This document shows, piece by piece, positions 7,511 to 59,704 of a stretch of 64,000 nt of DNA (position 1 is its first letter; every line of letters starts with the position of its first letter). Below the pieces are notes generated by a model. The model was not told the DNA's origin. It did not search any database and saw only the letters and a program-made list of their open reading frames with translations. Location of the stretch: contig JABMRT010000064.1 in NCBI GenBank assembly GCA_013202295.1, positions 3,362 to 67,361 of the forward strand. The letters are read 5' to 3'. Source of the stretch: Candidatus Zhuqueibacterota bacterium (GTDB taxonomy: Bacteria > Zhuqueibacterota > QNDG01 > JABMRT01). A program made the translations under genes and the position numbers.

Positions 7511-10272
7511 CAGAGTATATTAATCCGTTTTACTGCAAAATTGGCCTTTGCTACACCGGCCGGACTCAGCCGGATCAGCCGTGATTTTGGATCATTCAGA
7601 AAATCCATCGAATTACAGAAGAGATCCACTTCCTTTGGCAAAGTCCGTTCATTGAGCCGCAATACATGCTGTCCGGGATCCACATTGGGAATGGAAAATT
7701 TGCCGAACTCATCAGTAATGACACGGGTGCCATCCTCCATAATCAATTCGATCTGTCCGAATGTGGTTTCGTTGTCATCATGCATGCCGTTTTCGTTCTC
7801 ATCTTGATAAACCTTGCCGAAGATGAAGCCCCGATCATCAAACGCGCCTCGACGAATCATTATCGCTGCGATGGCTTCGTCTGAATAAATCCAGTCTCCG
7901 AACTCACATTGCCCGGCTGCGATCACACGGTTTTCGTGCTCACCCAATCCCACAGAAAGGCCTACAATCACCCGGTACTTTAACTGAAAACTCTTACCCG
8001 GTTGAAGTGTGTCTGTCACCATCCAGGTCATTGTTGAACCATTAATCCCTGGATCCATGAAGGGCTTGGATTCGAGACGACTTGTTCCGGTCTCATAGCG
8101 GAATCCTTCGGGCATCCGGTCCTTCACCTCAATGGGGGTCAACCAGCTCTCCTGACTTTTATTCTCCAAAGTCACTGTGTACGTCAGAATGTCTCCAACT
8201 TCGGATACCTTGCGATTGACCGTCTTTTTCACAGAGAGGAAGGGTTGAAGTAATTTGGTTCTTGCTTCAGACCGTTCATCATCCATCGTTTTTACTGTGT
8301 CCTGACTGAAATGGATTTCAGCACGGTTTTCGATTTCGCGAATACCCGGGCCAATATCCTCAACAACAATCGCACGTAGAATGATGGAATCAGGTTCAGA
8401 TGTCAACAGTCCGATGCGGCGCATTCGCAACTGATTTGTCACCGGATCATACGATTCCATTTCCAGAACGGGTTTCTGAACAATTTCATCCGGAAGGAGT
8501 CGTATTTCTCTGGGAAGATAATCCACGATATAAACTGTATCCATTACATTGTGTTCTGTCGTGCCATACCAGATGGTGTATGTGAGGGTGTCACCGACCT
8601 CAGCACGTTTCAGATCAACCTTCTTGTAGGCGAATACGGATCCTGAAATATCCACTGGCTCTGTGTTTGTGGCACATGAAGAGACGGCCACGGATGAGGT
8701 GTGGCTGTCAGAGAGCCATGCAGTATTCTCGATCAGAGTACCGAGTTCAACCGATTCACTGATTCGCGTCATCAAGGTGAGCGTATCCGTCAATCCGGGA
8801 ACCAGACTGGTTGCCGTCCAGATCACGATGTGTGACTCCGGATCGTAGACATGATCTCCTGACGCGTCGATAAATTCCAGAAATTCAGGAAGTGTATCTC
8901 GCAATACCGATTCATGTGCAATCGCAGTGCCGTGATTGACGCATGTGATGGTATAAATCAGAGTATCACCGGGTGAGGCAGTTGCTTGCGATTCCTTGAC
9001 CACAACCAGAACAGGTTGCGATGAAACCGTGATCGACCACAATGAAGTATCTTGCAGACCTTCAGAACAGGTGATTTTTGCAATGTTGTCAATCACCGTC
9101 TGATCATCAATAGGCATTTGGATGACCGTTTCGAGTTCGAGTGTATCGATGAACCCGGGCTGCATTTCCCCGAGATGCCAGACCACGGTATCGGCATTTG
9201 CGACCGGATCATGGGTGGCACTCAAATAAGACAGCCAACTCGACAGAGTATCCCGCACAATGACATTATGTACGGATCTGACACCGGAATTACCCACTGC
9301 GATTTTATACAGTATGGTATCTCCAGCTGTAAAGAGTGAATCATCCGCGAACTTTTCGATGAAGAGATTGCCGCCGTATCCCAAACAGGCAGAGGCTGTA
9401 TCCGCAGTATCAACTGCACCCTCCGCGCATTTCAAATAGGCGAAATTGAAGATCGAGTCTGTTCCTGCCTCAGCCAGAATTTCAACTTCCAGATCGATTT
9501 CGGATTCTTCTCCCGCAGCCAATGTGGGTACGATCCAATGAAACACGCCATTGGATGTATCCGCCGGTTCGGAGGAAGTAATAAAACGGGTCCCATGGGG
9601 AAGGGTATCGTTCACAACGAGCTGTGTCAGGGTCATGGGACCCGTATTTTTTATCCGTAAGCCATAGGTCAGGGTATCGCCGATGAAAGCAGATTCCTGA
9701 TCTACGGTTTTATCGATCTTTACTGCCGGCCAAGGCTGCCAAACCGTAGCAAGTGCTTTGGAATGGCCTCTGTAGCCGTCCTGGGTTTCGTAATACGCTG
9801 TATTGATTACAGAATCCTGGTAGACGGCCTCGATAATTTTACAATGTAATTGGATATTTACTACGCCACCGACTCTGATTTCCGGGATCAGCCATTCAAT
9901 GACATTTCCCGTGACCTGGCCGGTGGGATTTGACTGTACGTAAGACAGCATATGATCAAGCGAGTCCCGGATGGTCACATTGGTTAATGTGGATTCATCC
10001 ATATTTCTCACCTTGATATGATACTCGATTGTATCGCCCAATGCAACCAGCTGGGCATCGGTGGTTTTCTCGATGCTCACCAATCCCTCCCGGACCCGTG
10101 TCACGACCGTGTCGCTCGGCACTTCCATCACCACACCGCCACCGCCATCATAAGCGGCGTGAGCAACGTTGGTGATCTCCGTCCCTGGCGGAGTCTGGGC
10201 CCAACCTGAACCAAAGGCCAGGATGGACAGGAGCCCTAAGAGAAAGAGAGGTTTTTGGACGAAACGTTTCAT
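7510..10272 (-). CDS. DUF11 (conserved repeat domain) surface protein, 920 aa
   Basis: Signal peptide MKRFVQKPLFLLGLLSILAFGSGWA. Multiple DUF11-like modules (GDTLTYxI...N.G...). Conserved post-signal motif TPPGTEITNVAHAAYDGGGG...TRV shared with 10304..11965. Confidence 0.7.
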   Translation of the reverse strand: MKRFVQKPLFLLGLLSILAFGSGWAQTPPGTEITNVAHAAYDGGGGVVMEVPSDTVVTRVREGLVSIEKTTDAQLVALGDTIEYHIKVRNMDESTLTNVTIRDSLDHMLSYVQSNPTGQVTGNVIEWLIPEIRVGGVVNIQLHCKIIEAVYQDSVINTAYYETQDGYRGHSKALATVWQPWPAVKIDKTVDQESAFIGDTLTYGLRIKNTGPMTLTQLVVNDTLPHGTRFITSSEPADTSNGVFHWIVPTLAAGEESEIDLEVEILAEAGTDSIFNFAYLKCAEGAVDTADTASACLGYGGNLFIEKFADDSLFTAGDTILYKIAVGNSGVRSVHNVIVRDTLSSWLSYLSATHDPVANADTVVWHLGEMQPGFIDTLELETVIQMPIDDQTVIDNIAKITCSEGLQDTSLWSITVSSQPVLVVVKESQATASPGDTLIYTITCVNHGTAIAHESVLRDTLPEFLEFIDASGDHVYDPESHIVIWTATSLVPGLTDTLTLMTRISESVELGTLIENTAWLSDSHTSSVAVSSCATNTEPVDISGSVFAYKKVDLKRAEVGDTLTYTIWYGTTEHNVMDTVYIVDYLPREIRLLPDEIVQKPVLEMESYDPVTNQLRMRRIGLLTSEPDSIILRAIVVEDIGPGIREIENRAEIHFSQDTVKTMDDERSEARTKLLQPFLSVKKTVNRKVSEVGDILTYTVTLENKSQESWLTPIEVKDRMPEGFRYETGTSRLESKPFMDPGINGSTMTWMVTDTLQPGKSFQLKYRVIVGLSVGLGEHENRVIAAGQCEFGDWIYSDEAIAAIMIRRGAFDDRGFIFGKVYQDENENGMHDDNETTFGQIELIMEDGTRVITDEFGKFSIPNVDPGQHVLRLNERTLPKEVDLFCNSMDFLNDPKSRLIRLSPAGVAKANFAVKRINIL

Positions 10273-34064: not shown

Positions 34065-35615
34065 ATGGAGCGACGTCAATTTCTAAAGTCCCTGACTCAG
34101 AGCAGTGCCATTCTCGGATCTGGCGCCGCTCTGTCCATACTTGGAACCCAATGTGGTTTAAGCTCCACCCCCCTGAAAAATGTGATTGTCATTATCGGAG
34201 ATGATCATGCGGCTGGTGTGTTAGGATGCTATGGCAATCCACTCATCCAGACTCCTAATCTTGACAGAATGGCAAAAAAGGGCATCCGATTCACGCATGC
34301 CTATGCACAGGCGCCGGTGTGTTCGGCTTCCAGGCAGTCGTTGCTCACAGGCAAGTATCCGCATGCCACTGGTGTGACTCTGTTGACCACCTCCTTTCCG
34401 GATGAATCCAACGTCACCATTCCCGAACATCTGAAGCAATTCGGATTCAAAACGGCTGTGATTGGTAAAACCCATTTCAACAATGGTGGTTCGCATGGAT
34501 TCGATGTTAATATCAACAGACATCATCATCGCGAGTATTTGAATAACCACCCACCCAAACAAATTCCGGATGGAAAAAAAGTACGTCCAAAGTGGAGGCC
34601 GTTTCGCGATCCTGCCCCGATCTGGCTCAATGCAGATATGCTGCCATCACCCGAGTATGACGCTGATACAGAAACCACGTTCCTGACCGAACAGGCTGTT
34701 CAGTTCATCCAGAAAAATAAAGAGAATCGATTCTGTATGTTTGTTGGATATCATGAGCCGCATTCGCCATTTTACTTCCCAATCGAATGGGAAGGCAAGT
34801 ACAAACCGGAAGATGTGTCGCTTCCCAAGGGCAGCCCTGACGATGATCGGTGGGTGCCCGAAATCTTTCGTAATTTATCTGAACAGGATCGGAGAGGAAT
34901 TATTGCTTCGTATTATACTTCCGTGGACTATTTGGATTCCAAGGTGGGGCAAATCCTTGATGCCGTCCGTCACAATAAACTGGAAGAGAACACTCTGGTC
35001 ATCTATATCGGCGATCAGGGATATCTGCTAAATGATCATAAAAGATTTGAGAAACATTCGATGTGGGAAGAGTCGGTTCGAGCGCCTTTAATCTTGCAGG
35101 CTGGCGGGCGATGGGGCAAGGATCGAGTCGTAGGCGGTTTGACCGAGTTTGTTGATTTGGCTCCAACTATATGTGCTGTTTTAGGAGTTTCCGCCATGGA
35201 TGAGGCGCAGGGGCAGAGCCTGATGCCAATGCTGGAAGGGAGGACTCCAGCAAATAAAGATTCTGTTTTTTCTGAATTTCTGTGCGATAATAAGGCCATG
35301 GTCCGAACCAAACGATGGAAATATATATTTACATCTGGGAAGCGGGATTTAGGGCAGGGATATGCAACAGGCGAGGGACCGTCCGGCATTTTGCACAAAT
35401 TGTATGATTTGATGAGTGATCCCAACGAGACCAAGAATGTTGCAGGAGATCTGGCGAATTCATCCATCCTGCAGATGATGCAAGAACGAATGTTAAAGCT
35501 GTTTAGACGGACGGATGCTCGTGCGCAGGATATCCCTTCCGATATCTCAATTGAAAAACAGCTGACTTTGTTTTGTGAACCTCCTGATGTGGGTGCAGAT
35601 TTGTATGCGAAATGA
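34065..35615 (+). CDS. Sulfatase (Tat signal), variant active-site motif C-S-A-S-R
   Basis: RRQFLK twin-arginine signal. PVCSASRQSLLTGKYPHATG; sulfatase fold motifs GDDH..., GKTHFN. Confidence 0.65.
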   Translation: MERRQFLKSLTQSSAILGSGAALSILGTQCGLSSTPLKNVIVIIGDDHAAGVLGCYGNPLIQTPNLDRMAKKGIRFTHAYAQAPVCSASRQSLLTGKYPHATGVTLLTTSFPDESNVTIPEHLKQFGFKTAVIGKTHFNNGGSHGFDVNINRHHHREYLNNHPPKQIPDGKKVRPKWRPFRDPAPIWLNADMLPSPEYDADTETTFLTEQAVQFIQKNKENRFCMFVGYHEPHSPFYFPIEWEGKYKPEDVSLPKGSPDDDRWVPEIFRNLSEQDRRGIIASYYTSVDYLDSKVGQILDAVRHNKLEENTLVIYIGDQGYLLNDHKRFEKHSMWEESVRAPLILQAGGRWGKDRVVGGLTEFVDLAPTICAVLGVSAMDEAQGQSLMPMLEGRTPANKDSVFSEFLCDNKAMVRTKRWKYIFTSGKRDLGQGYATGEGPSGILHKLYDLMSDPNETKNVAGDLANSSILQMMQERMLKLFRRTDARAQDIPSDISIEKQLTLFCEPPDVGADLYAK

Positions 35616-35693: not shown

Positions 35694-37109
35694 GTGATGA
35701 ATCGAAGACAATTCATTCGAGCAACCAGTACAGCGGCTGGGTCTGCAATCCTTGGCAGTTGTGCCAGACAAAGACTTTATGAAACACCGAAAAAGCCGAA
35801 TATCATCTACATCCTGGCTGATGACTTGGGGTATGGCGACTTGGGCTGTTACGGTCAGACTAAAATCCGAACGCCTCATCTCGATCAGATGGCTGCAGAG
35901 GGCATGCGTTTCACGAACCATTATTCAGGAAGTACGGTTTGTGCTCCTTCCCGTTGCTGCCTCATGACCGGTTTACATACCGGGCACACTCGTGTCCGTG
36001 GTAATTATGAATCCGGCCCACATGGTTTTGGCGCTTGTCTTGAGTTGCGGCCCGAAGATGTGACCGTTGCCGAGTTACTTCAGCAAGGCGGATACAAAAC
36101 CGGCGCATTCGGCAAATGGAGCCTGGGTATTGAGAAGACGACGGGCGCGCCCTGGAAGCAGGGATTTGATCAGTTCTTCGGATATTTAAATCAGGGAAAT
36201 GCACATCGGTATTACCCGGATTTTCTCTGGGAGAATGATCAGAAAGTAGAACTGCCCGAGAATCTGGATGGTCAGCAAAGTACTTATTCCCATGATTTAA
36301 TCATAGATCGAGCTTTGGATTTTATCCAACAAAACAAGACTCAGCCCTTTTTTCTCTATCTTGCGATTGCGATTCCTCATGCCGATCTTCTTGTGCCAGA
36401 TGATTCCTTGCAGGAATATCTGGGGCAATTTGAAGAGACGCCCTATAAAGAAAAATTTTATAAAGGACAATCCACACCTAAAGCGGCTTTCGCGGGCATG
36501 ATCACTCGCATGGATCGGGATGTGGGACGATTGTTCGCGTTGTTAAAATCCTTGTCAATTGACGAGGATACGATTGTAATTTTTTCCAGTGACAACGGGC
36601 CGCATAAAGAGGGTGGGGCTGATCCTGATTTCTTTCAGAGTGCAGGATCTTTTCGCGGTTATAAGAGGGATCTGTATGAAGGCGGCATTCGGGTGCCAAT
36701 GATTGCACGATGGCCGGGACGTATCCAGCCCGGTCAAACATCAGATCATCCATCTGCATTCTGGGATTTCTTGCCCATGGCATGTGAACTGGCCAATCAG
36801 TCCATCCCGGATGGAATAGATGGGATTTCCATACTTCCCTCAATGACCGGGAAATCCCAGAAAAAACACGATTACTTATACTGGGAGTTTCATGAAAATT
36901 CGACCACCTCGCAAGCTATCCGATATCAGAATTGGAAAGGTGTGCGGCATGCGCCGAATGGACCTCTGGAACTTTATGATCTGAAAACGGATCATGGCGA
37001 GGAACGGAATGTGGTCGATAAACATCCAGAAGTCTACAAACAATTAACCGCAATTTTTGATTCAGCACGAACCGATCATGAACTCTGGCCGCTCAAATAT
37101 TATAAGTAA
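35694..37109 (+). CDS. Arylsulfatase-family sulfatase (Tat signal), canonical C-A-P-S-R fGly motif
   Basis: NRRQFIRATSTAAGSAILGSCA signal. TVCAPSRCCLMTGLHTGH; GKWSLG. Confidence 0.7.
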   Translation: MMNRRQFIRATSTAAGSAILGSCARQRLYETPKKPNIIYILADDLGYGDLGCYGQTKIRTPHLDQMAAEGMRFTNHYSGSTVCAPSRCCLMTGLHTGHTRVRGNYESGPHGFGACLELRPEDVTVAELLQQGGYKTGAFGKWSLGIEKTTGAPWKQGFDQFFGYLNQGNAHRYYPDFLWENDQKVELPENLDGQQSTYSHDLIIDRALDFIQQNKTQPFFLYLAIAIPHADLLVPDDSLQEYLGQFEETPYKEKFYKGQSTPKAAFAGMITRMDRDVGRLFALLKSLSIDEDTIVIFSSDNGPHKEGGADPDFFQSAGSFRGYKRDLYEGGIRVPMIARWPGRIQPGQTSDHPSAFWDFLPMACELANQSIPDGIDGISILPSMTGKSQKKHDYLYWEFHENSTTSQAIRYQNWKGVRHAPNGPLELYDLKTDHGEERNVVDKHPEVYKQLTAIFDSARTDHELWPLKYYK

Positions 37110-38312: not shown

Positions 38313-38630
38313 ATGAAACGTTTACAAGAAAATATAAGAATCCAGGCCTGTTTCTGCCACCATGAGGTAGTAAAAGGATTTTCTCTGTTCAGCGTGAATC
38401 GTTACCTTTGCAGCAGATGTTTGGGTATCTGTTTGGGCAGTATCCTCGCGATATTCTTTTATTATTTGGGAATTCAGGTTGGACTGCTTGCCGCTTTTTT
38501 TCTGATAATGCCTCTTGTCATTGATGGAATATTTCAGACTCTGCGAATCTATCAGAGCCGAAATGATATCCGAATGATATCAGGCGCATTGTTCGGATTG
38601 GGTTTGAATGTATTGGGATTGATCAGATGA
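38313..38630 (+). CDS. Small membrane protein, DUF2085-like (CxCHH...CxRCxG)
   Basis: ACFCHHEVVKGFSLFSVNRYLCSRCLGICLG, followed by TM helices. Confidence 0.45.
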   Translation: MKRLQENIRIQACFCHHEVVKGFSLFSVNRYLCSRCLGICLGSILAIFFYYLGIQVGLLAAFFLIMPLVIDGIFQTLRIYQSRNDIRMISGALFGLGLNVLGLIR

Positions 38631-38929
38631 CAGATGATACCAAAATCTGCATTGGCATGCCTATGCTTGCAATAATCTTGGTCTGGTGCTTCATGGACTA
38701 TCGTTTCCTTTTAGCCAGTCTCATTTTTGGCGCCAGCCTGGCAGCTGGTTATTTCATAAGAAAACTGATTCGTAGAAAAAAAAGACACAAGAGAAAAAAA
38801 CGGCGAACTTCGCAAAGAGAGGATGTTCATATACCCGCAGAAGGATATGATCAATCCAATCAGTCTCATTATCAATCGGCTCAGCAGACCTATCATTATC
38901 ATTCAGGATCACATAGGTCTAAACTTTAA
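38627..38929 (+). CDS. Small membrane protein with Lys/Arg-rich tail
   Basis: Two hydrophobic helices followed by RRKKRHKRKKRR. Overlaps the previous gene by 4 nt. Confidence 0.4.
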   Translation: MTDDTKICIGMPMLAIILVWCFMDYRFLLASLIFGASLAAGYFIRKLIRRKKRHKRKKRRTSQREDVHIPAEGYDQSNQSHYQSAQQTYHYHSGSHRSKL

Positions 38930-39001: not shown

Positions 39002-40312
39002 ATGAGTCTGGTTCATAAACTCAAATCACTTGATATGCAATGGAAAATCTTGATCGCGATTGTTTTGGGATTGACACTCGGTCTTACCTTAAATCAAACA
39101 GTTGGGCCCAATGTTCAGGAAGGCCCCTTTTTTATTCTGAAGACGCTGTTTCAATACGGTGGTGATATATTCATCCGGCTGCTTCGCATGACCATCATCC
39201 CGCTGGTGTTCGCCTCCATTTTTATGTCCATCGTAAATCTGGGCAACATACGAAAGCTCAAGCGTATCGGATCGGTTACTGTGGTCTATTATCTTACCAC
39301 AACTGCTTTAGCGGTTTTGGTTGGGATGCTGCTTGTCAATTGGATTCATCCCGGGCGGGGAATTGACCCTGCGGCGATTGAGGCGATGCAGATTGAATCT
39401 GTGGTGCCAGAATCCGTGGCTGCCCAGGGTGTGGGTGAGCGCAGTTCCCTGTTGATCATTCTGGATCAACTGGTCGATATGATCCCTAAAAATCCGATAC
39501 AAGCCATGGCAAAGGGTAACATTCTTCAACTGATTTTCTACACGATATTTTTTGCGCTCATCGCCGCAACACTCGGGAAGGAGGTTGAGCCTGTTGTGCG
39601 GGTCATTGAAGGCATTGACCGGATTATGCACAAATTCATTCTGGTGATTATGAAGATTGCGCCTTACTGTATCTTCTTTCTTGTCACTGTACTGATCATG
39701 GATCTGGGATTCAGCGTGCTTGGTGCATTGGGTAAATATGCGCTGACTGTGCTTCTGGGCCTGATTATTCATGCGGGGATCACATTGCCGATCCTGGTTC
39801 TTGTATTCGGTAAATATAATCCAATTAAGCTTTTTAAGGCAGTTCTCCCAGCTGTTCTTACGGCTTGGTCCACAGCATCAAGTGCGGCCACCTTGCCGAT
39901 TACGATGGATTGTATCGAGAAGAAAGCCGGCGTGGATCGTAAAATCGGTACATTTGTCCTACCGCTTGGCGCGACCGTGAACATGGATGGCACCGCGCTC
40001 TATGAATCTGTGGCTGTGATTTTTATAGCTGAGCTTCTGGGATTTGATCTCACAATCGGTACACAGATGATCATTTTTGTGACTGCGACGTTGGCAGCGA
40101 TTGGGGCGGCAGCTATTCCCTCCGCTGGACTAGTTACGATGGGTATTGTGCTCACCGCTGCCGGGTTACCTTTGGAGGGTATCGGTCTTATTTTAGCGAT
40201 TGACCGTATTTTAGATCAATTCCGTACGGCAGTGAATGTGTGGGGTGATTCAACTGCGGCTGTGGTTGTCGGGCGGATTGAGGGGGCGATAACGGAACTA
40301 AAACAAGATTAG
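39002..40312 (+). CDS. Dicarboxylate/amino acid:cation (Na+/H+) symporter, GltP/DctA (SDF) family
   Basis: Eight-TM hairpin architecture with conserved ...NMDGTALYE... and ...VNVWGD... motifs. AGGAG RBS. Confidence 0.75.
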   Translation: MSLVHKLKSLDMQWKILIAIVLGLTLGLTLNQTVGPNVQEGPFFILKTLFQYGGDIFIRLLRMTIIPLVFASIFMSIVNLGNIRKLKRIGSVTVVYYLTTTALAVLVGMLLVNWIHPGRGIDPAAIEAMQIESVVPESVAAQGVGERSSLLIILDQLVDMIPKNPIQAMAKGNILQLIFYTIFFALIAATLGKEVEPVVRVIEGIDRIMHKFILVIMKIAPYCIFFLVTVLIMDLGFSVLGALGKYALTVLLGLIIHAGITLPILVLVFGKYNPIKLFKAVLPAVLTAWSTASSAATLPITMDCIEKKAGVDRKIGTFVLPLGATVNMDGTALYESVAVIFIAELLGFDLTIGTQMIIFVTATLAAIGAAAIPSAGLVTMGIVLTAAGLPLEGIGLILAIDRILDQFRTAVNVWGDSTAAVVVGRIEGAITELKQD

Positions 40313-40410
40313 TCATATTTATTTTCAAAACATGTTGCAATTACGTTTTCAATTATTTATATTGATCACTCTGTAAGTAATATAAATATAATTAACTAGG
40401 CCTTTCAAAT

Positions 40411-41553
40411 ATGGGTTCATTTCCTGTTCACAAAGAGATGACATTTAAATCTGGAAAATTTACATTTAGTGCAAAATTTTCGGATGAAAAACTAACATCA
40501 AATTTAATCGAAAGTGAAATATTATTTAAAACAATCAATGACTTGCCAATATTGCCTAGTATTTCAGCTCAAATGCAAGAGGAGATAGTAAAACGATCAA
40601 TATTCAGTACCGCTGCACTTGAGGGAAACCCATTACCTGAAAAAGCAGTAATTGAAATTTTAAATCAAGATAATTATAATGAGAATTCCGAGAGAGCAAA
40701 GAAAGAAATCCAAAACTTAAAGGAGGCATATAAATATTTAAGGGCAATCTATCCTCCAGACAATTACCATAAGATAGGTGAAGAATTGATAAGAAATATC
40801 CATAAATCTATTACCAGTGGGATAAATTATAATGATAATAGCCCTGGAAAATTTCGTAATTTTATGGTTAAAGTTGGAGATGCCAACCATGGTGGCATAT
40901 ATACACCGCCTAAAATCCTTAAGGATATTTCAAATCTTATAAAGATTTTTATTGAATGGATCAATTGTGATGAGATGATGAAAATCAATCCTATTATAAG
41001 AGCTGCGTTGTCTCATTATCATTTGGGGCTCATTCATCCTTTTGGAGATGGAAACGGCCGAACAGCGAGGCTTGTTGAAGCGATAATACTTCAGACATCT
41101 GGATTTAGATATGTACCTGTGATGCTTTCAAATTTCTATTACAGAAATATAGATGATTATTATTGGGCTTTTTCTAAATCTATTAGAAATAAAGAGGATG
41201 ATGTCACAGATTTTCTTGAGTTTGTACTTAGAGGAATGATTGAATCATTAAATGAAATAAAAGAAACAATTACCTTCCATATCAGGGTATTAACCTTAAA
41301 AGACTACTTCTTATTTTTATACTCTGAGAAGAAAATTACTAATAGGCAGTATGATCTATTGTTAATATTGATAGAAAACATACATTACCAATTTACATTA
41401 AATGAAATACATAAGTCACACCCACTCAATATTTTATATCGAAATGTGAGCCCAAGTACAATCAGAAGAGATATTAAAAAACTGCTTGGTTTAGGGTTGT
41501 TGAAGGCTGTTAATGAACAAGGTTTTCAAATTAATCTCAATGCTTTGGAATAG
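40411..41553 (+). CDS. Fic-family AMPylase, class II (N-terminal inhibitory TAALEGN motif, HPFGDGNGRTAR Fic motif, C-terminal wHTH-like domain)
   Basis: Fic motif HxFx(D/E)GNGRxxR is present as HPFGDGNGRTARL. The inhibitory motif (S/T)xxxE(G/N) appears as STAALEGN. The gene is AT-rich relative to its flanks. Confidence 0.75.
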   Translation: MGSFPVHKEMTFKSGKFTFSAKFSDEKLTSNLIESEILFKTINDLPILPSISAQMQEEIVKRSIFSTAALEGNPLPEKAVIEILNQDNYNENSERAKKEIQNLKEAYKYLRAIYPPDNYHKIGEELIRNIHKSITSGINYNDNSPGKFRNFMVKVGDANHGGIYTPPKILKDISNLIKIFIEWINCDEMMKINPIIRAALSHYHLGLIHPFGDGNGRTARLVEAIILQTSGFRYVPVMLSNFYYRNIDDYYWAFSKSIRNKEDDVTDFLEFVLRGMIESLNEIKETITFHIRVLTLKDYFLFLYSEKKITNRQYDLLLILIENIHYQFTLNEIHKSHPLNILYRNVSPSTIRRDIKKLLGLGLLKAVNEQGFQINLNALE

Positions 41554-41596
41554 TCTCTTTCTTGTTCTATTTACATATTCTTAATATATTTAAAGA

Positions 41597-41851
41597 ATGA
41601 CACCCAAACAAAAAGCAATAAATGCCATACAGGAAATGCCTGATTCAATAGATTGGGCAGATATTGAAGAGCGCATCAGCTTCTTGGCTGCGATCGATCA
41701 TGGTTTAGAAGATGTCAACGCAGGGTGCGTTGTAACTCATCAACAGGTGAAAGAAAGAATTCTTGATGGTTTCAAAAAAATTCGAGCAAAGCAAAAGGTA
41801 GCTCAACCAGGTGAAATCAAAGAGATGATTATACAAGACCGAAAGAGATAA
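41597..41851 (+). CDS. Small (84 aa) protein, possible addiction-module/antitoxin-like component
   Basis: The C-terminal half DHGLEDVNAGCVVTHQQVKERI resembles the ...G..G..........EEV...L pattern of small 'putative addiction module component' proteins, from recollection only. Lies 43 nt downstream of Fic. Confidence 0.35.
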   Translation: MTPKQKAINAIQEMPDSIDWADIEERISFLAAIDHGLEDVNAGCVVTHQQVKERILDGFKKIRAKQKVAQPGEIKEMIIQDRKR

Positions 41852-41889
41852 GACACATCTCATTTAAAATTATCAATAGCAATTCAATC

Positions 41890-41970
41890 TTATAAGCGAA
41901 CGTGTGGGGTGATTCTACTGCCATTTTGTTTGTGGGGTGGATTGAGGGGGCGATAACAGAGGTTAAATAA
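41890..41970 (+). other. Diverged (~75-80% identical) duplicate of the last ~70 bp of the gltP-like gene, with its own stop codon; right boundary of the Fic islet
   Basis: 40240-40312 GTGTGGGGTGATTCAACTGC...GGATTGAGGGGGCGATAACGGAACTAAAACAAGATTAG versus 41893-41970 GTGTGGGGTGATTCTACTGC...GGATTGAGGGGGCGATAACAGAGGTTAAATAA. These encode VWGDSTAAVVVGRIEGAITELKQD* and VWGDSTAILFVGWIEGAITEVK* respectively. Confidence 0.7.
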
Positions 41971-41976
41971 ATATCA

Positions 41977-42008
41977 AGTCCCCGGCACTTGCGAAGTGCC
42001 GGGGACTT
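41977..42008. terminator. Perfect 14-bp stem / GCGA tetraloop hairpin (likely the gltP-type terminator; no clean U-tract)
   Basis: AGTCCCCGGCACTT-GCGA-AGTGCCGGGGACTT. Confidence 0.45.
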
Positions 42009-42068
42009 CCACTTGATAAACCATCCCCTAAGAAATCTTCATATTGTACTTTTTTTCACAAAAAACTA

Positions 42069-42097
42069 TTGACAAGAATAATTCTATTCTGTATATT
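42069..42097 (+). promoter_or_regulatory. Sigma-70-type promoter of the hydrogenase operon (TTGACA-17-TATATT)
   Basis: TTGACA 42069-42074, a 17-nt spacer, TATATT 42092-42097, with TG immediately upstream. It sits ~300 nt upstream of the first start codon. Confidence 0.5.
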
Positions 42098-42400
42098 CGA
42101 GAAGTATTGTGAAACAAAGTACAATAAGTCTAGAATCACATTTTTTTTGTTGAAGATATTTTCGTGTTCTTTGGCAATATCTCTTGAATGCACCCAACGC
42201 TGATTCCGATTGATAAATCGTCCTCAGATTTTTAAAATTGCGTCCTCCTTTCTGACAAGAATCCAAATTGTAATTCCAACACCATCCTCACTTATCAGCA
42301 TCTAATTCATTTAAGCATTCCCTTTACTCCAGAAACACTCTGATGGTATGCATTCAAGCTATTGCATGAATGGTATTCAATTCACAATAGGAGTACGCCG

Positions 42401-43438
42401 ATGCTGATAAAAGAACAGGCCTTGCTTTCATTTTTTGAAAAATGTGCAGATGGAAGTGTTGGAGCGTATTCAGAAGTTATTGTCCCTATCCTGACAGAAG
42501 GGCAGGATGGGCAAACTCGACTGGCTCCCTTCTCAAAAGAAAAAACATGCATTCTCGATGGATTCCGCTCAGTAGATCCCACAAAAATTCTCTATTACAT
42601 GCCTCGGGAAAAAGTGCTTCCCGTTGAAACATCCAACAAAAAACGTATTGTAGCTGGCGTGAAAGCCTGCGATGTCAAGGCCATGCAGGTGCTTGATACG
42701 GCCCTGGCCGGTGAGGATTTTGTGGATCCTGTGTATCAGGCGTGGCGTGAAGATACAGTGCTCATCAGCACGGATTGTTCCTCAACAGCGCCGACTTGTC
42801 ATTGCACGATTCTGGGCGGCACTCCCTATGCTGAATCCGGATTTGATCTGAATTTATCCAAACTGGGTGATTCCTACATTATCCAGACCGGATCGGAAAA
42901 AGGAGAGGCATTCCTCAAATTCCTCGAAAAGAACGCGGATGTTCAAAAATCAAACGACGCGGATGTGAAGGCCGTGCAGGACAACCGCAAGAAGATGGCC
43001 GATCAAGTGGCCGCGCAGAACAAGGATCTGGAACGGTCCGACAATTATCCCAATCTTCGAAAAGATATGGATAAAGAGTGGCCCGTGGCATCCGAGACCT
43101 GCGTGGGGTGTGGAGCATGTACAAATATTTGCCCGACCTGTTACTGTCTGATCCTGAATGATGAAACCAAGGCGCAACAGTTTGTGAAAGTGCGCGGTTA
43201 CGATTCCTGCCAGTGGCACGGATACGCGCGAGTCGCCGGCGGGGATTCACCCAGACCGAAGATGTCCCAGCGCTTCCGCAATCGTTATTTGTGTAAATTC
43301 CTCTTTATGCAGAGTAATTTCAATCAGCTGGGCTGCACAGGATGCGGCCGTTGCACAGAGGCTTGCGCGGGGAATATTGACTTCCGCAAAGTCGTGAAGC
43401 GGATTGTGGACGGCGTTGAAATGGCAGTGGTTGATTAA
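42401..43438 (+). CDS. AsrA / sulfhydrogenase-beta (HydB)-like 2x[4Fe-4S] subunit
   Basis: AGGAG RBS 7 nt upstream of ATG at 42401. Cys motifs CVGCGACTNICPTCYC and GCTGCGRCTEACAGNIDF. Confidence 0.65.
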   Translation: MLIKEQALLSFFEKCADGSVGAYSEVIVPILTEGQDGQTRLAPFSKEKTCILDGFRSVDPTKILYYMPREKVLPVETSNKKRIVAGVKACDVKAMQVLDTALAGEDFVDPVYQAWREDTVLISTDCSSTAPTCHCTILGGTPYAESGFDLNLSKLGDSYIIQTGSEKGEAFLKFLEKNADVQKSNDADVKAVQDNRKKMADQVAAQNKDLERSDNYPNLRKDMDKEWPVASETCVGCGACTNICPTCYCLILNDETKAQQFVKVRGYDSCQWHGYARVAGGDSPRPKMSQRFRNRYLCKFLFMQSNFNQLGCTGCGRCTEACAGNIDFRKVVKRIVDGVEMAVVD

Positions 43439-54750: not shown

Positions 54751-56106
54751 ATGCGCATTCGCCCGGCCACATTACATCTGCCTTTTTATACAATACAAAC
54801 GTTAAAGAACCGTCTTGAGTGGGTGATTAACCTTCGCTGGCTGGCTGTATTTGGCATCCTCATTTCTGTGCCGATCGGGCAGCAGATGCTGGGTTTTTCT
54901 CTGGCCTATCCTCAAATCGTAATCACTGCTTCTATCCTCTTGTTGGTCAATATTCTCTACTTCTTTCTGCTTCATTTCACAATCTTTCGATCAGAATTTC
55001 AGGAACTTATTTTCGCAGAAATCCAGGTGCTGACGGATTTGATTTTGATTTCCTGCCTGGTTCATTTCGCGGGAGGTGTTGAAAATCCATTTTATTTCTT
55101 TTACATGATTGTCGTCATCCTGGCCGGATTTCTCTTTCCCGGCGTACTGATTTCGATGCTCAATGCTCTGTTTGCCGCAATCCTTCTTACTGGATGGACG
55201 CTTCTTGAATATCACGGATCTGTTCCCAGCTATCAGTTGGGGCAGGATATATTTTCTTCGGCGCACATCGTGACTGCGCTTCTTGCGTTTTATGTAACGA
55301 CTTTTGCCGGAATTTATATAATCAGTAATTTAGTGCAGAGTTATCGTGGTCTCAAAGATATCATTGACGAAAAAAACGTTCAGCTTGAGAAATCGATGCA
55401 GGCGCGGCGTGAAATATTCAGGTATGCCGCGCATGAACTTAAGTCGCCAATCACAACCATTCAGAGTACGCTTGCCGTGGTCGATCATACTTACGCCAAG
55501 GATCTCACACCCGAAGTAAAGGACATGGTTGAACGGGCCGAGCGCCGATCATCACAATTGCTGGATATGATCAATGAGATGATTGAGATCACGAAATATA
55601 AAGAGGGAATCATTGTTTCCGATTATCAATGCGTGATGTTCTGTGCCTGGCTGAAACAGATCACTGAATCGCAACGGTCGTATGCCATGCAGAAAAAAAT
55701 TCAATTAGATGTAGGCACACTCGCTGAAGAAGTTACAATTTGTTTTGATCGATCCGAGATGGATAAAGTGGTTGTGAATCTGCTAAGCAATGCGCTTCGT
55801 TATACACCGCAAGGAGGTCGGGTTTCGATTGAACCCTTCCAGGATCGCAAACATTATGGATTTTGTATCGCAGATACCGGGATTGGGATTTCCAAGAAGG
55901 ATCAGGATAAAGTTTTTGATGAATTCTACCGGACTCCCGACGCGAAAACAATGGAACGCACGGGTACTGGATTGGGACTCAATCTGGTACGCGAAATCAT
56001 AAAGAAACACGAGGGCAGTATCCAACTGAAGAGTGAGGTGGGGAAGGGGAGTCAGTTTACGGTGCGGTTGCCGAGAACGGATAAGTCAACATTAAAATCT
56101 TCCTAA
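54751..56106 (+). CDS. Sensor histidine kinase with polytopic N-terminal membrane domain; no cognate response regulator adjacent
   Basis: ~6 TM helices, H-box HELKSPITTIQS, and G-boxes DTGIGI / GTGLGLNLV. Confidence 0.65.
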   Translation: MRIRPATLHLPFYTIQTLKNRLEWVINLRWLAVFGILISVPIGQQMLGFSLAYPQIVITASILLLVNILYFFLLHFTIFRSEFQELIFAEIQVLTDLILISCLVHFAGGVENPFYFFYMIVVILAGFLFPGVLISMLNALFAAILLTGWTLLEYHGSVPSYQLGQDIFSSAHIVTALLAFYVTTFAGIYIISNLVQSYRGLKDIIDEKNVQLEKSMQARREIFRYAAHELKSPITTIQSTLAVVDHTYAKDLTPEVKDMVERAERRSSQLLDMINEMIEITKYKEGIIVSDYQCVMFCAWLKQITESQRSYAMQKKIQLDVGTLAEEVTICFDRSEMDKVVVNLLSNALRYTPQGGRVSIEPFQDRKHYGFCIADTGIGISKKDQDKVFDEFYRTPDAKTMERTGTGLGLNLVREIIKKHEGSIQLKSEVGKGSQFTVRLPRTDKSTLKSS

Positions 56107-56237
56107 TATTATTAATATTCAATTTGTATTTACATAATCAATAGACATAGGAGCATTGATTATTTGTTTCGTGCTCTTCAGATCAGTGATCTTCTATTAA
56201 AGAAATCTCCCAATTTATCAGTTTTATAAATTAATTC

Positions 56238-56266
56238 TTGACAATCCGGAAAAATTTAATTATTGT
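56238..56266 (+). promoter_or_regulatory. Sigma-70-type promoter of the ABC/GntR islet operon (TTGACA-17-TATTGT)
   Basis: TTGACA 56238-56243, a 17-nt spacer, TATTGT 56261-56266. Confidence 0.45.
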
Positions 56267-56297
56267 TTTAGTGTATTAGTAAGATAGAACACTAAAA
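56266..56297 (+). promoter_or_regulatory. 9-bp inverted repeat (TTTTAGTGT-N14-ACACTAAAA) overlapping the transcription start region; candidate operator of the downstream YtrA-like GntR
   Basis: Seen directly between the -10 element and the GGAGG RBS of 56308. Confidence 0.4.
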
Positions 56298-56307
56298 CGG
56301 AGGAAAT

Positions 56308-57165
56308 ATGATAACCTTGAAACATGTTGAGTTTGGGTACAGAAATGACCAACTCCTGTTTAAGGATCTGAATCTTAATATAGAGTCAGGAAATATATAC
56401 GGTCTTTTAGGCCCAAATGGTGCAGGAAAGACAAGTCTGCTGAAACTGCTTTGTGGACTGAGATTTCAAAAATCAGGAAGATGCGAGGTTTTAAAGTTAT
56501 CACCCAAAAGTCGTCCAAAAGTCCTATTTGAGAACCTCTTTTATTTGCCGGAACGTACTTCTTCTCTCTCTGGGTCAGTGAGCATGTATTTAAAAATATA
56601 CAGCCCTTTTTATCCAAAATTCGATCGAGATAAATTTAATGATTATTTAGAATTGTATAAAATTAATACAAATGTGAATCTATCAACTTTTTCTACCGGA
56701 CAAACACGGAAGTTCTTATTGGCATTCGCAATTGCGACAAACTGTCAAATCATATTACTGGATGAGCCGACAAATGGACTTGATATCCCTGGTAAAAGTC
56801 AATTCAGGAAAATCGTAGCTTCAGCACTCGATCAGAATAAACTTTTCCTCATTGCAACCCATCAAGTCAAAGACATTGAAACACTTGTCGATCATTATAT
56901 CATGATCGACAATGGAAAGATCGTGTTTGACCACTCCTCTGATGAAATTCAAAATAATTTAAAATTTGCACGAGTCACGAAAGAACCAGAACGGGATATT
57001 CTTTATTTTGAGAGATTCCCCGGCGGGTATCGAATAGTGTCATCAAATGAGGATGATGTGGAATCAGAAATTGATATTGAATTGTTGTTCAATGCGGTGA
57101 TGAAGGATGCTGGTAAAATCGATATCCATATGAAAGAGGAGGTGACCGTTGAAAATGAAAGTTGA
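56308..57165 (+). CDS. ABC transporter ATP-binding protein
   Basis: Walker A GPNGAGKTSLLK, a signature-like LSTGQTRK, and Walker B ILLDEPTNGLD. Confidence 0.75.
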   Translation: MITLKHVEFGYRNDQLLFKDLNLNIESGNIYGLLGPNGAGKTSLLKLLCGLRFQKSGRCEVLKLSPKSRPKVLFENLFYLPERTSSLSGSVSMYLKIYSPFYPKFDRDKFNDYLELYKINTNVNLSTFSTGQTRKFLLAFAIATNCQIILLDEPTNGLDIPGKSQFRKIVASALDQNKLFLIATHQVKDIETLVDHYIMIDNGKIVFDHSSDEIQNNLKFARVTKEPERDILYFERFPGGYRIVSSNEDDVESEIDIELLFNAVMKDAGKIDIHMKEEVTVENES

Positions 57166-57922
57166 TTTTTCAGTAAGGCGCTGTTGTTTACTCATTCGTG
57201 CAGATCTTGTGAATTATAGAAAAGAAATCGCCGTGTGCGCGGCCGCTTTAATTTTATTTTTTGCTGTAGGATTCTGGCTAAACAAGACGACGTTTGAGAA
57301 TGATCAGGTACCAGCCTTTATGTATCACTTCTTCTTAGTAGTTGGAGGAGCTTTGCTCGCCAGTGTTTCTTTAAGAGATATGGATCAAAATAGGTCGGGA
57401 TTAAATTATTTGACATTACCCGCATCACAGAATGAGAAAATCATTTCTAGATTATCCTTGACCTCTGTGGGATACATGCTTGCATTAACTTTCATGTTTA
57501 TTCCAGTTCAGGTCATTGCTCTGCAGTTTTATGAATTGAATGCAATAAAATACTCTGACTTGCTGATCAATCGACAAACCCTGAACTTCTTTATTCTGTA
57601 TGTGATCTTTTTTTATGGTTCAACACGATTCAGGACAATGGCACTATTTAAAACACTGGTTACAGGTACGATTGTCTACACCCTATTCTACTTTGTTGTC
57701 CGGATCATGGTAAATATTCTTTTTTGGGATATAATATATTTTGAGGATCATATGATTTTGTTGAGAATTATTTTCTCTGATCCAATCATGGAAAAGATGA
57801 TTTGGATACCGACCGGCGCCCATTATCTCAATCCATTAGTTTTATTGGCCGCCGTATTTATAACAATGCCATTCGCTTTCTTGCCGGCAGCATTCTTAAG
57901 ATTCAAAGAAAGCGAGATTTGA
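57149..57922 (+). CDS. Polytopic membrane protein of unknown function (putative permease partner of the ABC ATPase)
   Basis: 6-7 hydrophobic helices. Overlaps the ATPase gene by 17 nt. Confidence 0.5.
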   Translation: MKMKVDFSVRRCCLLIRADLVNYRKEIAVCAAALILFFAVGFWLNKTTFENDQVPAFMYHFFLVVGGALLASVSLRDMDQNRSGLNYLTLPASQNEKIISRLSLTSVGYMLALTFMFIPVQVIALQFYELNAIKYSDLLINRQTLNFFILYVIFFYGSTRFRTMALFKTLVTGTIVYTLFYFVVRIMVNILFWDIIYFEDHMILLRIIFSDPIMEKMIWIPTGAHYLNPLVLLAAVFITMPFAFLPAAFLRFKESEI

Positions 57923-57923
57923 T

Positions 57924-58295
57924 ATGGAATTTATCGGTACACAACCCATTTATTTACAGATTGTTGACCTCATTGCTGAAAATATCCTGTCAAGGAAGTG
58001 GGTGGAGGGAGAAAGGCTTGCCTCTGTGCGTGAACTTGCCATACAGATTGAAGTTAATCCGAACACAGTCTTGCGATCGTTTACCTATTTGCAGAACAGA
58101 AACGTCATTTTCAATAAAAGGGGCATTGGTTATTTTGTGGCAGAGAGCGCTTACGAAGTTCTATTGAATATCAAAAGAACAGAGTTTATTAAAAAAAATG
58201 CACCTCAATTTTTCAGGACTATGGACTTGTTGGATATAAAGATATCTGAATTGAATCGGTTATATACTTTATATAAAAAGGAGCATCACTCATGA
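57924..58295 (+). CDS. Short GntR-family (YtrA-like) transcriptional regulator
   Basis: HTH LASVRELAIQIEVNPNTVLRSFTYLQNRNVIFNKRGIGYFV. 123 aa with no effector-binding domain. Confidence 0.65.
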   Translation: MEFIGTQPIYLQIVDLIAENILSRKWVEGERLASVRELAIQIEVNPNTVLRSFTYLQNRNVIFNKRGIGYFVAESAYEVLLNIKRTEFIKKNAPQFFRTMDLLDIKISELNRLYTLYKKEHHS

Positions 58296-59065
58296 AACCC
58301 AGCAATAAACTGCTACTATTATATTTATTAATACTTTTATTGTTTATAATATTTCAACTACTGCGGTTCAAGAATAGGCTGGACCTTAATGTTGATAGTA
58401 CAGACAATATAGGTAGGAATATAGCCGACACTTTAAAAAATGATTATAACTTGACAGTCTTTGCTCCTCCAGCAGAGACAAAAGCATACTTGGTTCATTT
58501 TGGGGTGACCCGTGGATTTTGGGGACGGCTTGCTAAAGGTAATCTTTTCCAAGATTTGGGTTTGAAAACTGCTTGGGTGAATTCAGAATTTGGTTACATT
58601 GATTTTAAATTTAAGCCCACTCGTTACGCGCTCTTTAATAAACCTTCTAAGGGTCATAATAAGCCTGTTGTGGCCACTCGTTATTTTTTTGAAACAGATC
58701 CCGAGCAGATGATCCAAAATATATATGAGGAAACAGTTAATGTGATGGTCGTGAAATATCAGAATCCTGAGCATGCTTCATTTTGGTTCAACAGCTATTT
58801 CGAAAGAATTAGGATTGCTTTAGTAGAAAGGAGGACCAGGGAAAACCTTGTGAATTATGATGAAAAGAACGAATCTGGCTCCGATGCAGCAGTATGTCAG
58901 TGGATCAGTGGTCCTTGGGAAACGGCGATTATGGTTCCATTCAGTCAATGTGATGGAGACAGCCTCAAAGCACGACAGCTTTGTGATGCAATTCGAGATC
59001 GAGTGTTTGAGTATTATCAAGGTTTTAAGAATCCTCCCGAAGGCTCGGAGCCTTCGGGAGGATGA
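58292..59065 (+). CDS. Secreted/exported protein of unknown function; 3' end and stop codon supplied by a REP palindrome
   Basis: Signal-anchor MKPSNKLLLLYLLILLLFIIFQLL. The last residues ...NPPEGSEPSGG* are encoded by the 59031-59063 palindrome. Confidence 0.5.
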   Translation: MKPSNKLLLLYLLILLLFIIFQLLRFKNRLDLNVDSTDNIGRNIADTLKNDYNLTVFAPPAETKAYLVHFGVTRGFWGRLAKGNLFQDLGLKTAWVNSEFGYIDFKFKPTRYALFNKPSKGHNKPVVATRYFFETDPEQMIQNIYEETVNVMVVKYQNPEHASFWFNSYFERIRIALVERRTRENLVNYDEKNESGSDAAVCQWISGPWETAIMVPFSQCDGDSLKARQLCDAIRDRVFEYYQGFKNPPEGSEPSGG

Positions 59066-59704
59066 GGATAGAAATACATCAATCTATGGTAAATATGTCT
59101 AAATTCCCGGGTGTTACTAAATCAAGATCTTCAACAAAAAATTTATATTCTATCGCAGAAGAAAAGTACATATCTCTCACAGACAAATCAACTAGACTGC
59201 CCTTTCGTTCTTCAATAAATTCCAGATAATTTGAGAAAATCCATTTATCAGGTGATTCTACAAGCCCGGCTTCCACGGGATTTCGATGGATATACCGTAT
59301 CAAATGCATGAGGTCTTCATCTTTATCCACGAGTACGTGTTTAAAACGCCCTTCAAAGAGTGGGCCTTTGCGGTCAAGTTGTTTGTTCAAGGCCTGAACA
59401 TAGCTATTGAATGTCGATTGAATAAAGCGAGAGATTGAATGTTCGTCTTCTGGCCTGACAAGAAAATGATAATGGTTCGGCATGAGGCAGTAGGCAATAA
59501 TTTTGATTTGGTGCCTTTCGGCATTCTTTTTCACCAAATGAAGGCAATAGGTGTAATTGTCTTCTGAGAAGAAGATTTGTTGTTTATTGACACCCCGGTT
59601 GTACAGATGATAGTACTGGTTTTGAGAGATGTTTTTATAACGAGTTGGCATTATTGATAATTCTTTTATGCATCCTCCCGAAGGCTTCGAGCCTTCGGGA
59701 GGAT
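59031..59704. mobile_element. REP-RAYT-REP unit: tyrosine HUH transposase gene flanked by two inverted copies of a 33-bp palindromic element
   Basis: 59031-59063 ATCCTCCCGAAGG-CTCGGAG-CCTTCGGGAGGAT and 59672-59704 ATCCTCCCGAAGG-CTTCGAG-CCTTCGGGAGGAT. The loops are near reverse complements of each other. Confidence 0.65.
59079..59651 (-). CDS. REP-associated tyrosine transposase (RAYT; IS200/IS605-like TnpA HUH family)
   Basis: HUH motif PNHYHFLV; catalytic Tyr region IRYIHRNPVEAGL. 190 aa. Confidence 0.7.
   Translation of the reverse strand: MPTRYKNISQNQYYHLYNRGVNKQQIFFSEDNYTYCLHLVKKNAERHQIKIIAYCLMPNHYHFLVRPEDEHSISRFIQSTFNSYVQALNKQLDRKGPLFEGRFKHVLVDKDEDLMHLIRYIHRNPVEAGLVESPDKWIFSNYLEFIEERKGSLVDLSVRDMYFSSAIEYKFFVEDLDLVTPGNLDIFTID

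Follow-up and report, generated by a model that had tools for sequence, protein, structure and literature searches.

The DNA analysed here (the window) is a 64,000-nt stretch of contig JABMRT010000064.1 from a Candidatus Zhuqueibacterota bacterium of the uncultured phylum KSB1, in which an AT-rich islet of 1,582 nt (40313–41894) lies directly behind the stop codon of an intact gltP-type symporter gene and contains only two genes, one for a class II Fic AMPylase and an open reading frame (ORF) of 84 codons, ORF84. On the far side of the islet stands a second, degenerate copy of the end of gltP. This layout supports the interpretation that the Fic/ORF84 segment would be an insertion at the gltP 3′ end that left a duplicated gene end. 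Our best explanation, to which we give about an even chance, is that the islet is a stranded, integrase-less scar of the attachment-site (att) type holding a defence gene, akin to a cis-mobilizable element (CIME) and to the integration of e14 in the icd gene of Escherichia coli.

The symporter gene (SDF/gltP-type dicarboxylate/amino acid:cation symporter; 39002–40312, + strand, 436 aa) matched PF00375 (E 5.5e-121), and an identical database protein is named dicarboxylate/amino acid:cation symporter, from a candidate division KSB1 bacterium. Right after its stop codon, GC content dropped from 0.47–0.50 to 0.26–0.36, from 40313 to about 41850; the islet has a GC content of 0.314, compared with 0.461 for the whole window and 47–50% for the flanks. 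A 19-nt AT-rich junction (40313–40331, GC 0.158) leads from the gltP stop to the start of the Fic unit, and no homology of this junction to any other Fic locus was found. A first-pass annotation, made from the letters of this DNA alone, had noticed the AT-rich segment directly after the stop at 40312, a class II Fic gene with the inhibitory motif TAALEGN and an active-site motif, the 84-aa ORF, and a duplicate of the symporter's C-terminal coding end (placed at 41893–41970, with approximately 75–80% identity); all of these were recovered, the duplicate at 41895–41970 with 80% identity and with translations exactly as first given. The arrangement was present in three independent metagenome contigs (L001, L096 and L097), and the two that were aligned to the window (L001 and L096) were 99.98–100% identical to it, so that an assembly artefact could be rejected. 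The islet is fixed, all contigs sampled carrying both Fic and ORF84.

The duplicated gltP end and the site in relatives

The direct repeat (40231–40306 and 41895–41970) spans 76 nt at 80% identity, without gaps. Chance similarity was rejected, as the local alignment score of the repeat was 46, whereas 300 shuffles reached 15 at most and 10.6 on average. The resident, functional copy, on the attL-like side and detected by repeat search, comprises the last 25 codons of gltP plus tail and stop (40231–40312, + strand) and encodes VNVWGDSTAAVVVGRIEGAITELKQD followed by the stop. The distal copy, on the attR-like side, is a pseudo-fragment (41895–41971, + strand) encoding ANVWGDSTAILFVGWIEGAITEVK followed by a stop; an in-frame TAA stands immediately 5′ of it, and no gltP homology was found 5′ of 41895.

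The 15 differences between the copies were polarised with three outgroups (L087, L085 and L089). Eight proved to be derived in the distal copy and one in the resident end, the remainder being ambiguous synonymous sites, and the resident end agreed with L087 and L085 where the distal copy differed. Several states were exclusive to the resident and distal copies, including a rare Ile codon, ATT, in GRIEG (among 120 listed homologues only two others have Ile at this position), and changes in the distal copy were non-conservative, with AVV replaced by ILF and a near-invariant Arg by Trp. The sharing of lineage-specific states with the resident end, together with these derived, non-conservative changes, indicates that the distal copy is a decaying sister of the lineage's own gltP end and not a working end imported from a different host, contrary to the first-pass annotation, which had derived the duplicate from a previous host. 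The rates of synonymous (dS, 7/18.7) and non-synonymous (dN, 8/56.3) difference between the copies give a dN/dS of 0.38, as would be expected if one copy is constrained and the other is not. The distal copy has accumulated roughly 0.15 substitutions per site, and the scar is old. Sliding identity of the resident 3′ end to L085, L087 and L089 showed no discontinuity; this segment is the best-conserved part of the gene and is uninformative on foreign origin.

An islet-free state was seen in L087/L088, where GltP is 75% identical and the gene is followed by a 498-nt spacer and then by the same operon of Fer4_22, AsrB-like, Fer4 and hydrogenase genes, with neither Fic nor ORF84 between gltP and the operon. 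In the window, the first gene of this operon, the conserved right-hand neighbour, encodes a Fer4_22 protein (42401–43438, + strand, PF17179), and is preceded by a promoter-like box, TTGACA-N17-TATATTCG (42069–42099, + strand, 11/12 consensus matches), which marks native DNA. The box lies 84 nt past the gltP stop in L087 and 98 nt past the stop of the distal copy in the window, and this similar spacing puts the distal fragment in the ancestral gene-end position. These results bear out the earlier proposal of an insertion at the gltP 3′ end. The box itself (7380–7410 in L087) is conserved despite the 75% identity of GltP, whereas the surrounding spacer is not. In L085, with a GltP 81% identical to that of the window, the upstream order of sulfatase, DUF6588 and SDF genes is kept and the DNA after gltP is different.

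The C-terminal peptide of GltP was compared by tblastn with 80 genome loci and other fetched loci, with flanks of 5–6 kb; most of these loci belong to other phyla, the close relatives being poorly sampled. A second gltP end was found in none of 85 other gltP loci, only the window and the contigs of its own population having one, and the three nearest relatives (L085, L087/L088 and L089) each had a single gltP. These single copies tell against a history in which the window once held a tandem gltP paralogue, and the Fic and ORF84 DNA replaced all of it except the last 76 bp and a terminator hairpin. Such a history would require two events, with a boundary happening to spare exactly a gene end, and would have to accommodate the complete loss of gltP homology 5′ of 41895. 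In its favour, the distal copy has the sister relation to the resident end that is expected of a recent tandem duplicate, a dN/dS below 1 is compatible with a period of two functional copies, tandem or nearby gltP paralogues exist elsewhere (for example in L027), and no recombinase would be needed. On balance we consider a paralogue remnant unlikely.

The Fic unit and ORF84

The Fic gene (40411–41553, + strand, 380 aa) matched PF02661 (E 2.2e-15) and, over residues 24–370 of 380, the PADLOC model for SoFic (E 3.8e-47). Its product has an active-site motif of the form HxFx(D/E)GNGRxxR (HPFGDGNGRTAR; 41035–41070, aa 209–220) and, N-terminal to the Fic core in the same polypeptide, an inhibitory motif of the form (S/T)xxxE(G/N), namely TAALEGN (40609–40629, aa 67–73); class II Fic proteins are defined by such an N-terminal motif in the same polypeptide, and autoinhibition has been described for them (PMC12249575). 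The NCBIfam equivalog model for SoFic gave 71.9 bits against a cut-off of 550, and as this cut-off was missed, the protein is assigned by its sequence to the class II SoFic-like subfamily, not as a SoFic equivalog or orthologue. Its relatives in the PDB were FICD and SoFic. SoFic-type class II Fic proteins have been reported as single-gene abortive-infection defences (PMC12249575), and by analogy the Fic protein of the window would be expected to act as such a defence, checked by its N-terminal inhibitory helix.

The Fic homologues closest to that of the window (64–74% aa identity) came from five loci with unrelated contexts: beside a frameshifted cas2 in L002, between MFS and TauE genes in L003, between SSF and DUF5009 genes in L004, on a short contig with unrelated flanks in L098, and adjoining a Phd/ParE pair in L099/L100. 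Because these closest homologues sit in unrelated contexts, the Fic gene is clearly mobile on an evolutionary time scale. In the loci that were profiled (L003, L004 and L098), the GC content of the Fic gene was 25–36%, compared with 44–54% in the flanks; AT-richness is a persistent trait of the Fic family in these genomes and does not prove that the gene arrived recently. Between the window and L098, the nearest Fic locus, nucleotide homology ran from 40332 to 41551 only, covering a 79-nt leader and the coding sequence. This leader (40332–40410, + strand) was conserved in four loci, with a promoter-like TTGCAA-N17-TATATT (40335–40363 in the window), and no conservation past the Fic stop codon was found across the Fic loci. 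Since homology between Fic loci ends at 40332 and at the Fic stop, the Fic unit (40332–41553) is best described as a compact 1.22-kb module, with ORF84 and the gltP fragment outside it.

Two of these loci have neighbourhoods worth recording in their own right. In L099/L100, a Phd/YefM-ParE pair comes after the Fic homologue, which has 64% identity, and another is found at a distance of 3 kb (6406–6977 and 9216–9694), so that this Fic gene stands in a small toxin–antitoxin-rich neighbourhood. In L002, from another KSB1 metagenome-assembled genome, the end of a partial gene together with a 15-bp hairpin (226–276) is repeated 360 nt downstream (586–636) at 82% identity; the repeat brackets the frameshifted cas2 (PF09827, E 4e-7), not Fic, and is located just upstream of that genome's Fic gene. 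It constitutes a second small insert between duplicated copies of a gene end and hairpin.

The first-pass annotation had read the islet as the footprint left by an element with the gltP 3′ end as its target. On that account, a mobile Fic cassette would have carried a gltP end from a previous, different host, with its recombinase encoded elsewhere, which would explain why the islet is bracketed by a direct repeat and has no integrase inside, and would agree with the evolutionary mobility and variable contexts of Fic. However, the search that had been suggested for Fic cassettes flanked by gltP 3′-end fragments found none among L002, L003, L004, L098 and L099/L100, and no flanking repeats of any kind were found around the other Fic loci. 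The duplicate is likewise absent from the other gltP loci, the homology shared between Fic loci excludes both ORF84 and the gltP fragment, and the copy shares lineage states with the resident end, its differences being those of decay and not the conservative divergence of a working foreign end. We give this account little credence.

ORF84 (41597–41851, + strand) was called as an ORF of 84 aa and had no match in Pfam, NCBIfam or PADLOC. Its AlphaFold model (pLDDT, predicted local distance difference test, of 90) is a small all-helical protein of four helices, for which no fold match was found in the PDB. A word-indexed homologue search returned only ORF84 itself; the family comprises 211 relatives at E≤1e-3, typically of about 61 aa, and cluster names for its members in JGI offer only ‘predicted transcriptional regulator’. 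No relatives of Fic or ORF84 were found in viral collections. The family profile gave a weak match (E about 0.002) to the C-terminal, toxin-binding segment of RelB/CopG antitoxins, and one family member, P0270, matched the Phd-type antitoxin beside ParE in L099. A type II antitoxin would be recognised by a known domain and an adjacent toxin gene; ORF84 has neither, no toxin ORF being found after it, and is at best antitoxin-like. The small gene AS1, downstream of E. coli SoFic, counteracts toxicity (PMC12249575), but the closest Fic loci lack ORF84, which makes a role as a dedicated partner of the AS1 type unlikely.

The separate limits of the Fic unit and the different GC content of ORF84 leave room for a two-step origin, in which a small, older ORF84 insertion, perhaps once a toxin–antitoxin pair, made the scar and Fic, through illegitimate or flank-mediated recombination, landed later in an intergenic site that was disrupted already, much as defence genes often gather at hotspots. 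The limits of the Fic unit (40332–41553) are sharp, and its GC content is 0.31, compared with 0.40 for ORF84; ORF84 resembles an orphan antitoxin, Fic adjoins a Phd/ParE pair in L099/L100, and E. coli has documented defence hotspots in which no mobile-element genes can be detected (PMC10121019). Yet no genome turned up in which Fic was missing while ORF84 and the scar were present; every contig of the population carried both. Taken on its own, this sequence of events seems rather improbable, if less so than a paralogue remnant; it is plausible as a refinement of the best explanation and is not an exclusive alternative to it.

Proposed route of integration and evidence against it

In the best explanation, that of an att-type scar, foreign DNA (40313–41894) would have lodged at the 3′ end of gltP in an integration event that duplicated the last 76 bp or so of the gene. 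The route would be integration, site-specific (attL/attR) or of the Campbell type, at a protein gene's end, for which e14 in icd is the textbook case; the chromosomal gene end would have recombined with a copy carried by the element, and a duplicated gene end around foreign DNA is the signature of such an event. One copy would have stayed fused to gltP, under selection, while the other, displaced beside the native downstream DNA with its hairpin and operon promoter, decayed as a pseudo-fragment. Going by the e14/icd precedent, the distal copy, which adjoins native DNA, would more likely be the displaced host end. All else of the original element, recombinase included, would then have been lost, or the recombinase may have acted in trans, leaving a stranded CIME-type islet made up of ORF84 and the 1.22-kb Fic unit, which is self-contained, has a promoter-bearing leader and may itself have landed in the scar later.

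Target duplications made by transposition are much shorter, and none arise when DNA is replaced through flanking homology. A duplication that brackets foreign DNA and leaves the gene intact, combined with the absence of a recombinase gene, therefore favours an integrase-less remnant of the CIME type. As the first-pass annotation had stated, no integrase or recombinase gene lies inside the islet; nor was a recombinase gene found among the ORFs scanned at about 27–59 kb, in which the sole transposase-like gene was a Y1_Tnp at 59 kb. An integron gene cassette was also considered and rejected, as attC (an imperfect inverted repeat of at least 55 nt) is absent and the spacers after Fic and after ORF84 are AT-rich, 43 nt long and without an inverted repeat.

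Several results weigh against the att-type scar. The closest islet-free relative that shares the flanks, L087/L088, is distant, with only 75% GltP identity, so that the polarity of the event rests on the footprint of the duplication. The empty-site comparison that had been suggested along with the first-pass annotation thus gave a gltP without the islet before the same operon in L087/L088, but no empty allele or excision product was found in the window's own population. Exact look-ups of GltP, Fic, ORF84 and Fer4_22 in search of an empty allele or a donor returned only occupied contigs of the same population. No intact integrase-bearing element was found at the gltP 3′ end in the 85 other gltP loci. 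The longest block identical between the repeats, 19 nt, was rejected as a recombination core; its length is not statistically unusual (P = 0.12 under chance placement of the 15 differences), and no crossover core can therefore be named. A metagenome scan with this shared block gave six chance matches in unrelated genes. Finally, flanking repeats are lacking at the other Fic loci, and the Fic unit may therefore have arrived apart from the event that made the scar.

On a bolder reading, the Fic unit would be a discrete mobile defence cassette that moves between unrelated chromosomal sites of KSB1-type genomes without terminal repeats or a recombinase in cis. Here it would have been caught at a site formed by the gltP end and served by a trans-acting recombinase, along with a small helical protein of a new kind, anti-Fic or antitoxin-like. 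We regard this reading as quite improbable.

Flanking features and comparison with known systems

The first-pass annotation had also described a perfect 14-bp hairpin immediately after the duplicate. The perfect hairpin is present, although its stem measures 15 bp and it begins 5 nt past the stop of the distal copy: a GC-rich sequence of 33 nt, AAGTCCCCGGCACTTGCGAAGTGCCGGGGACTT (41976–42008), with arms at 41976–41990 and 41994–42008 and a 3-nt loop. It occurs once in the window, has a folding z of −4.9 and is not followed by a T-run on the + strand; it is a probable terminator or a repetitive extragenic palindrome (REP)-like element. The Y1_Tnp gene (IS200-like, PF01797; 59079–59651, minus strand) lies between two near-identical perfect 33-nt hairpins (ATCCTCCCGAAGGCT...AGCCTTCGGGAGGAT; 59031–59063 and 59672–59704), an arrangement resembling that of REP-associated tyrosine transposases (RAYTs) and their REPs. 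The hairpin at 41976 has the same geometry as these (15 bp and a 3-nt loop), with about 6/15 stem positions alike by eye, and does not belong to the sequence family that flanks Y1_Tnp, as would be required of a REP/RAYT or IS200/IS605 association.

Adjoining the Y1_Tnp gene is a second AT-rich block (56000–59000, GC 0.35–0.38) with genes for an ABC ATPase with an AAA_21/AbiEii-like match and a GntR regulator, and two 257-aa ORFs without a Pfam match; it may be another accessory islet. Upstream of gltP, a gene for a DUF2085 membrane protein and an overlapping 100-aa ORF (38313–38929) stand between DUF6588 and gltP, and in L085 the gap from DUF6588 to gltP is only 94 nt, so that this pair is likewise lineage-specific. 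The window also has two adjoining sulfatase genes (34065–35615 and 35694–37109), where the syntenic relative L085 has one. Scans of the region with Rfam and for transfer RNAs gave nothing meaningful.

Among known systems, the closest precedent for the scar is e14 in icd of E. coli K-12, where the reading frame is kept and a slightly diverged C-terminal pseudo-fragment, icdC, lies at the far end of the insert (PMC13626634). Like it, the islet of the window would have integrated at a protein gene's 3′ end, with the reading frame preserved and a gene-end fragment on the far side. However, e14 is 15 kb long, encodes its own integrase and excises, whereas the islet has 1.6 kb and no recombinase, and its fragment is far more decayed (80% identity, with Arg changed to Trp). 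A CIME is an integrase-less remnant flanked by att sites (PMC5704250), and the islet resembles one in being flanked by direct repeats where a target gene ends (40231–40306 and 41895–41970), in lacking integration and transfer genes, in its small size and in its accessory cargo. It differs in that its repeats are diverged, their att function is putative, and no related integrative and conjugative or integrative and mobilizable element is known at the site, none having turned up at the 85 gltP loci surveyed; moreover, CIMEs were defined in Firmicutes, not in KSB1.

The cargo resembles SoFic of Shewanella and E. coli in its Fic domain, its active-site and N-terminal inhibitory motifs, its length of about 380 aa and its C-terminal helix-turn-helix-like region, and, as with E. 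coli SoFic and AS1, a small gene lies just downstream. Its sequence relation to SoFic is nonetheless distant (PDB match with E about 3e-9 over 95 residues; 72 against 550 bits). As at E. coli hotspots of the #37 type (PMC10121019), a defence gene stands between conserved genes, and nothing that could mobilise it can be identified; unlike such a hotspot, the site is known as one occupied site in one lineage, and its use by other genomes was not found.

The locus offers a clean, dated example, from a little-studied uncultured phylum, of how a single-gene defence system may end up between core genes, with an integration scar that spares the host gene while the mobility genes have vanished, and of a Fic subfamily that travels as a compact, persistently AT-rich unit of promoter plus gene. 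It also counsels caution, in that a diverged flanking repeat can reflect decay in place and need not signify import. In all, it appears to be a fairly ordinary fossil integration scar, which joins known kinds, SoFic-like defence genes and integrase-less scars of the att type at protein-gene ends, and reveals no new mechanism.

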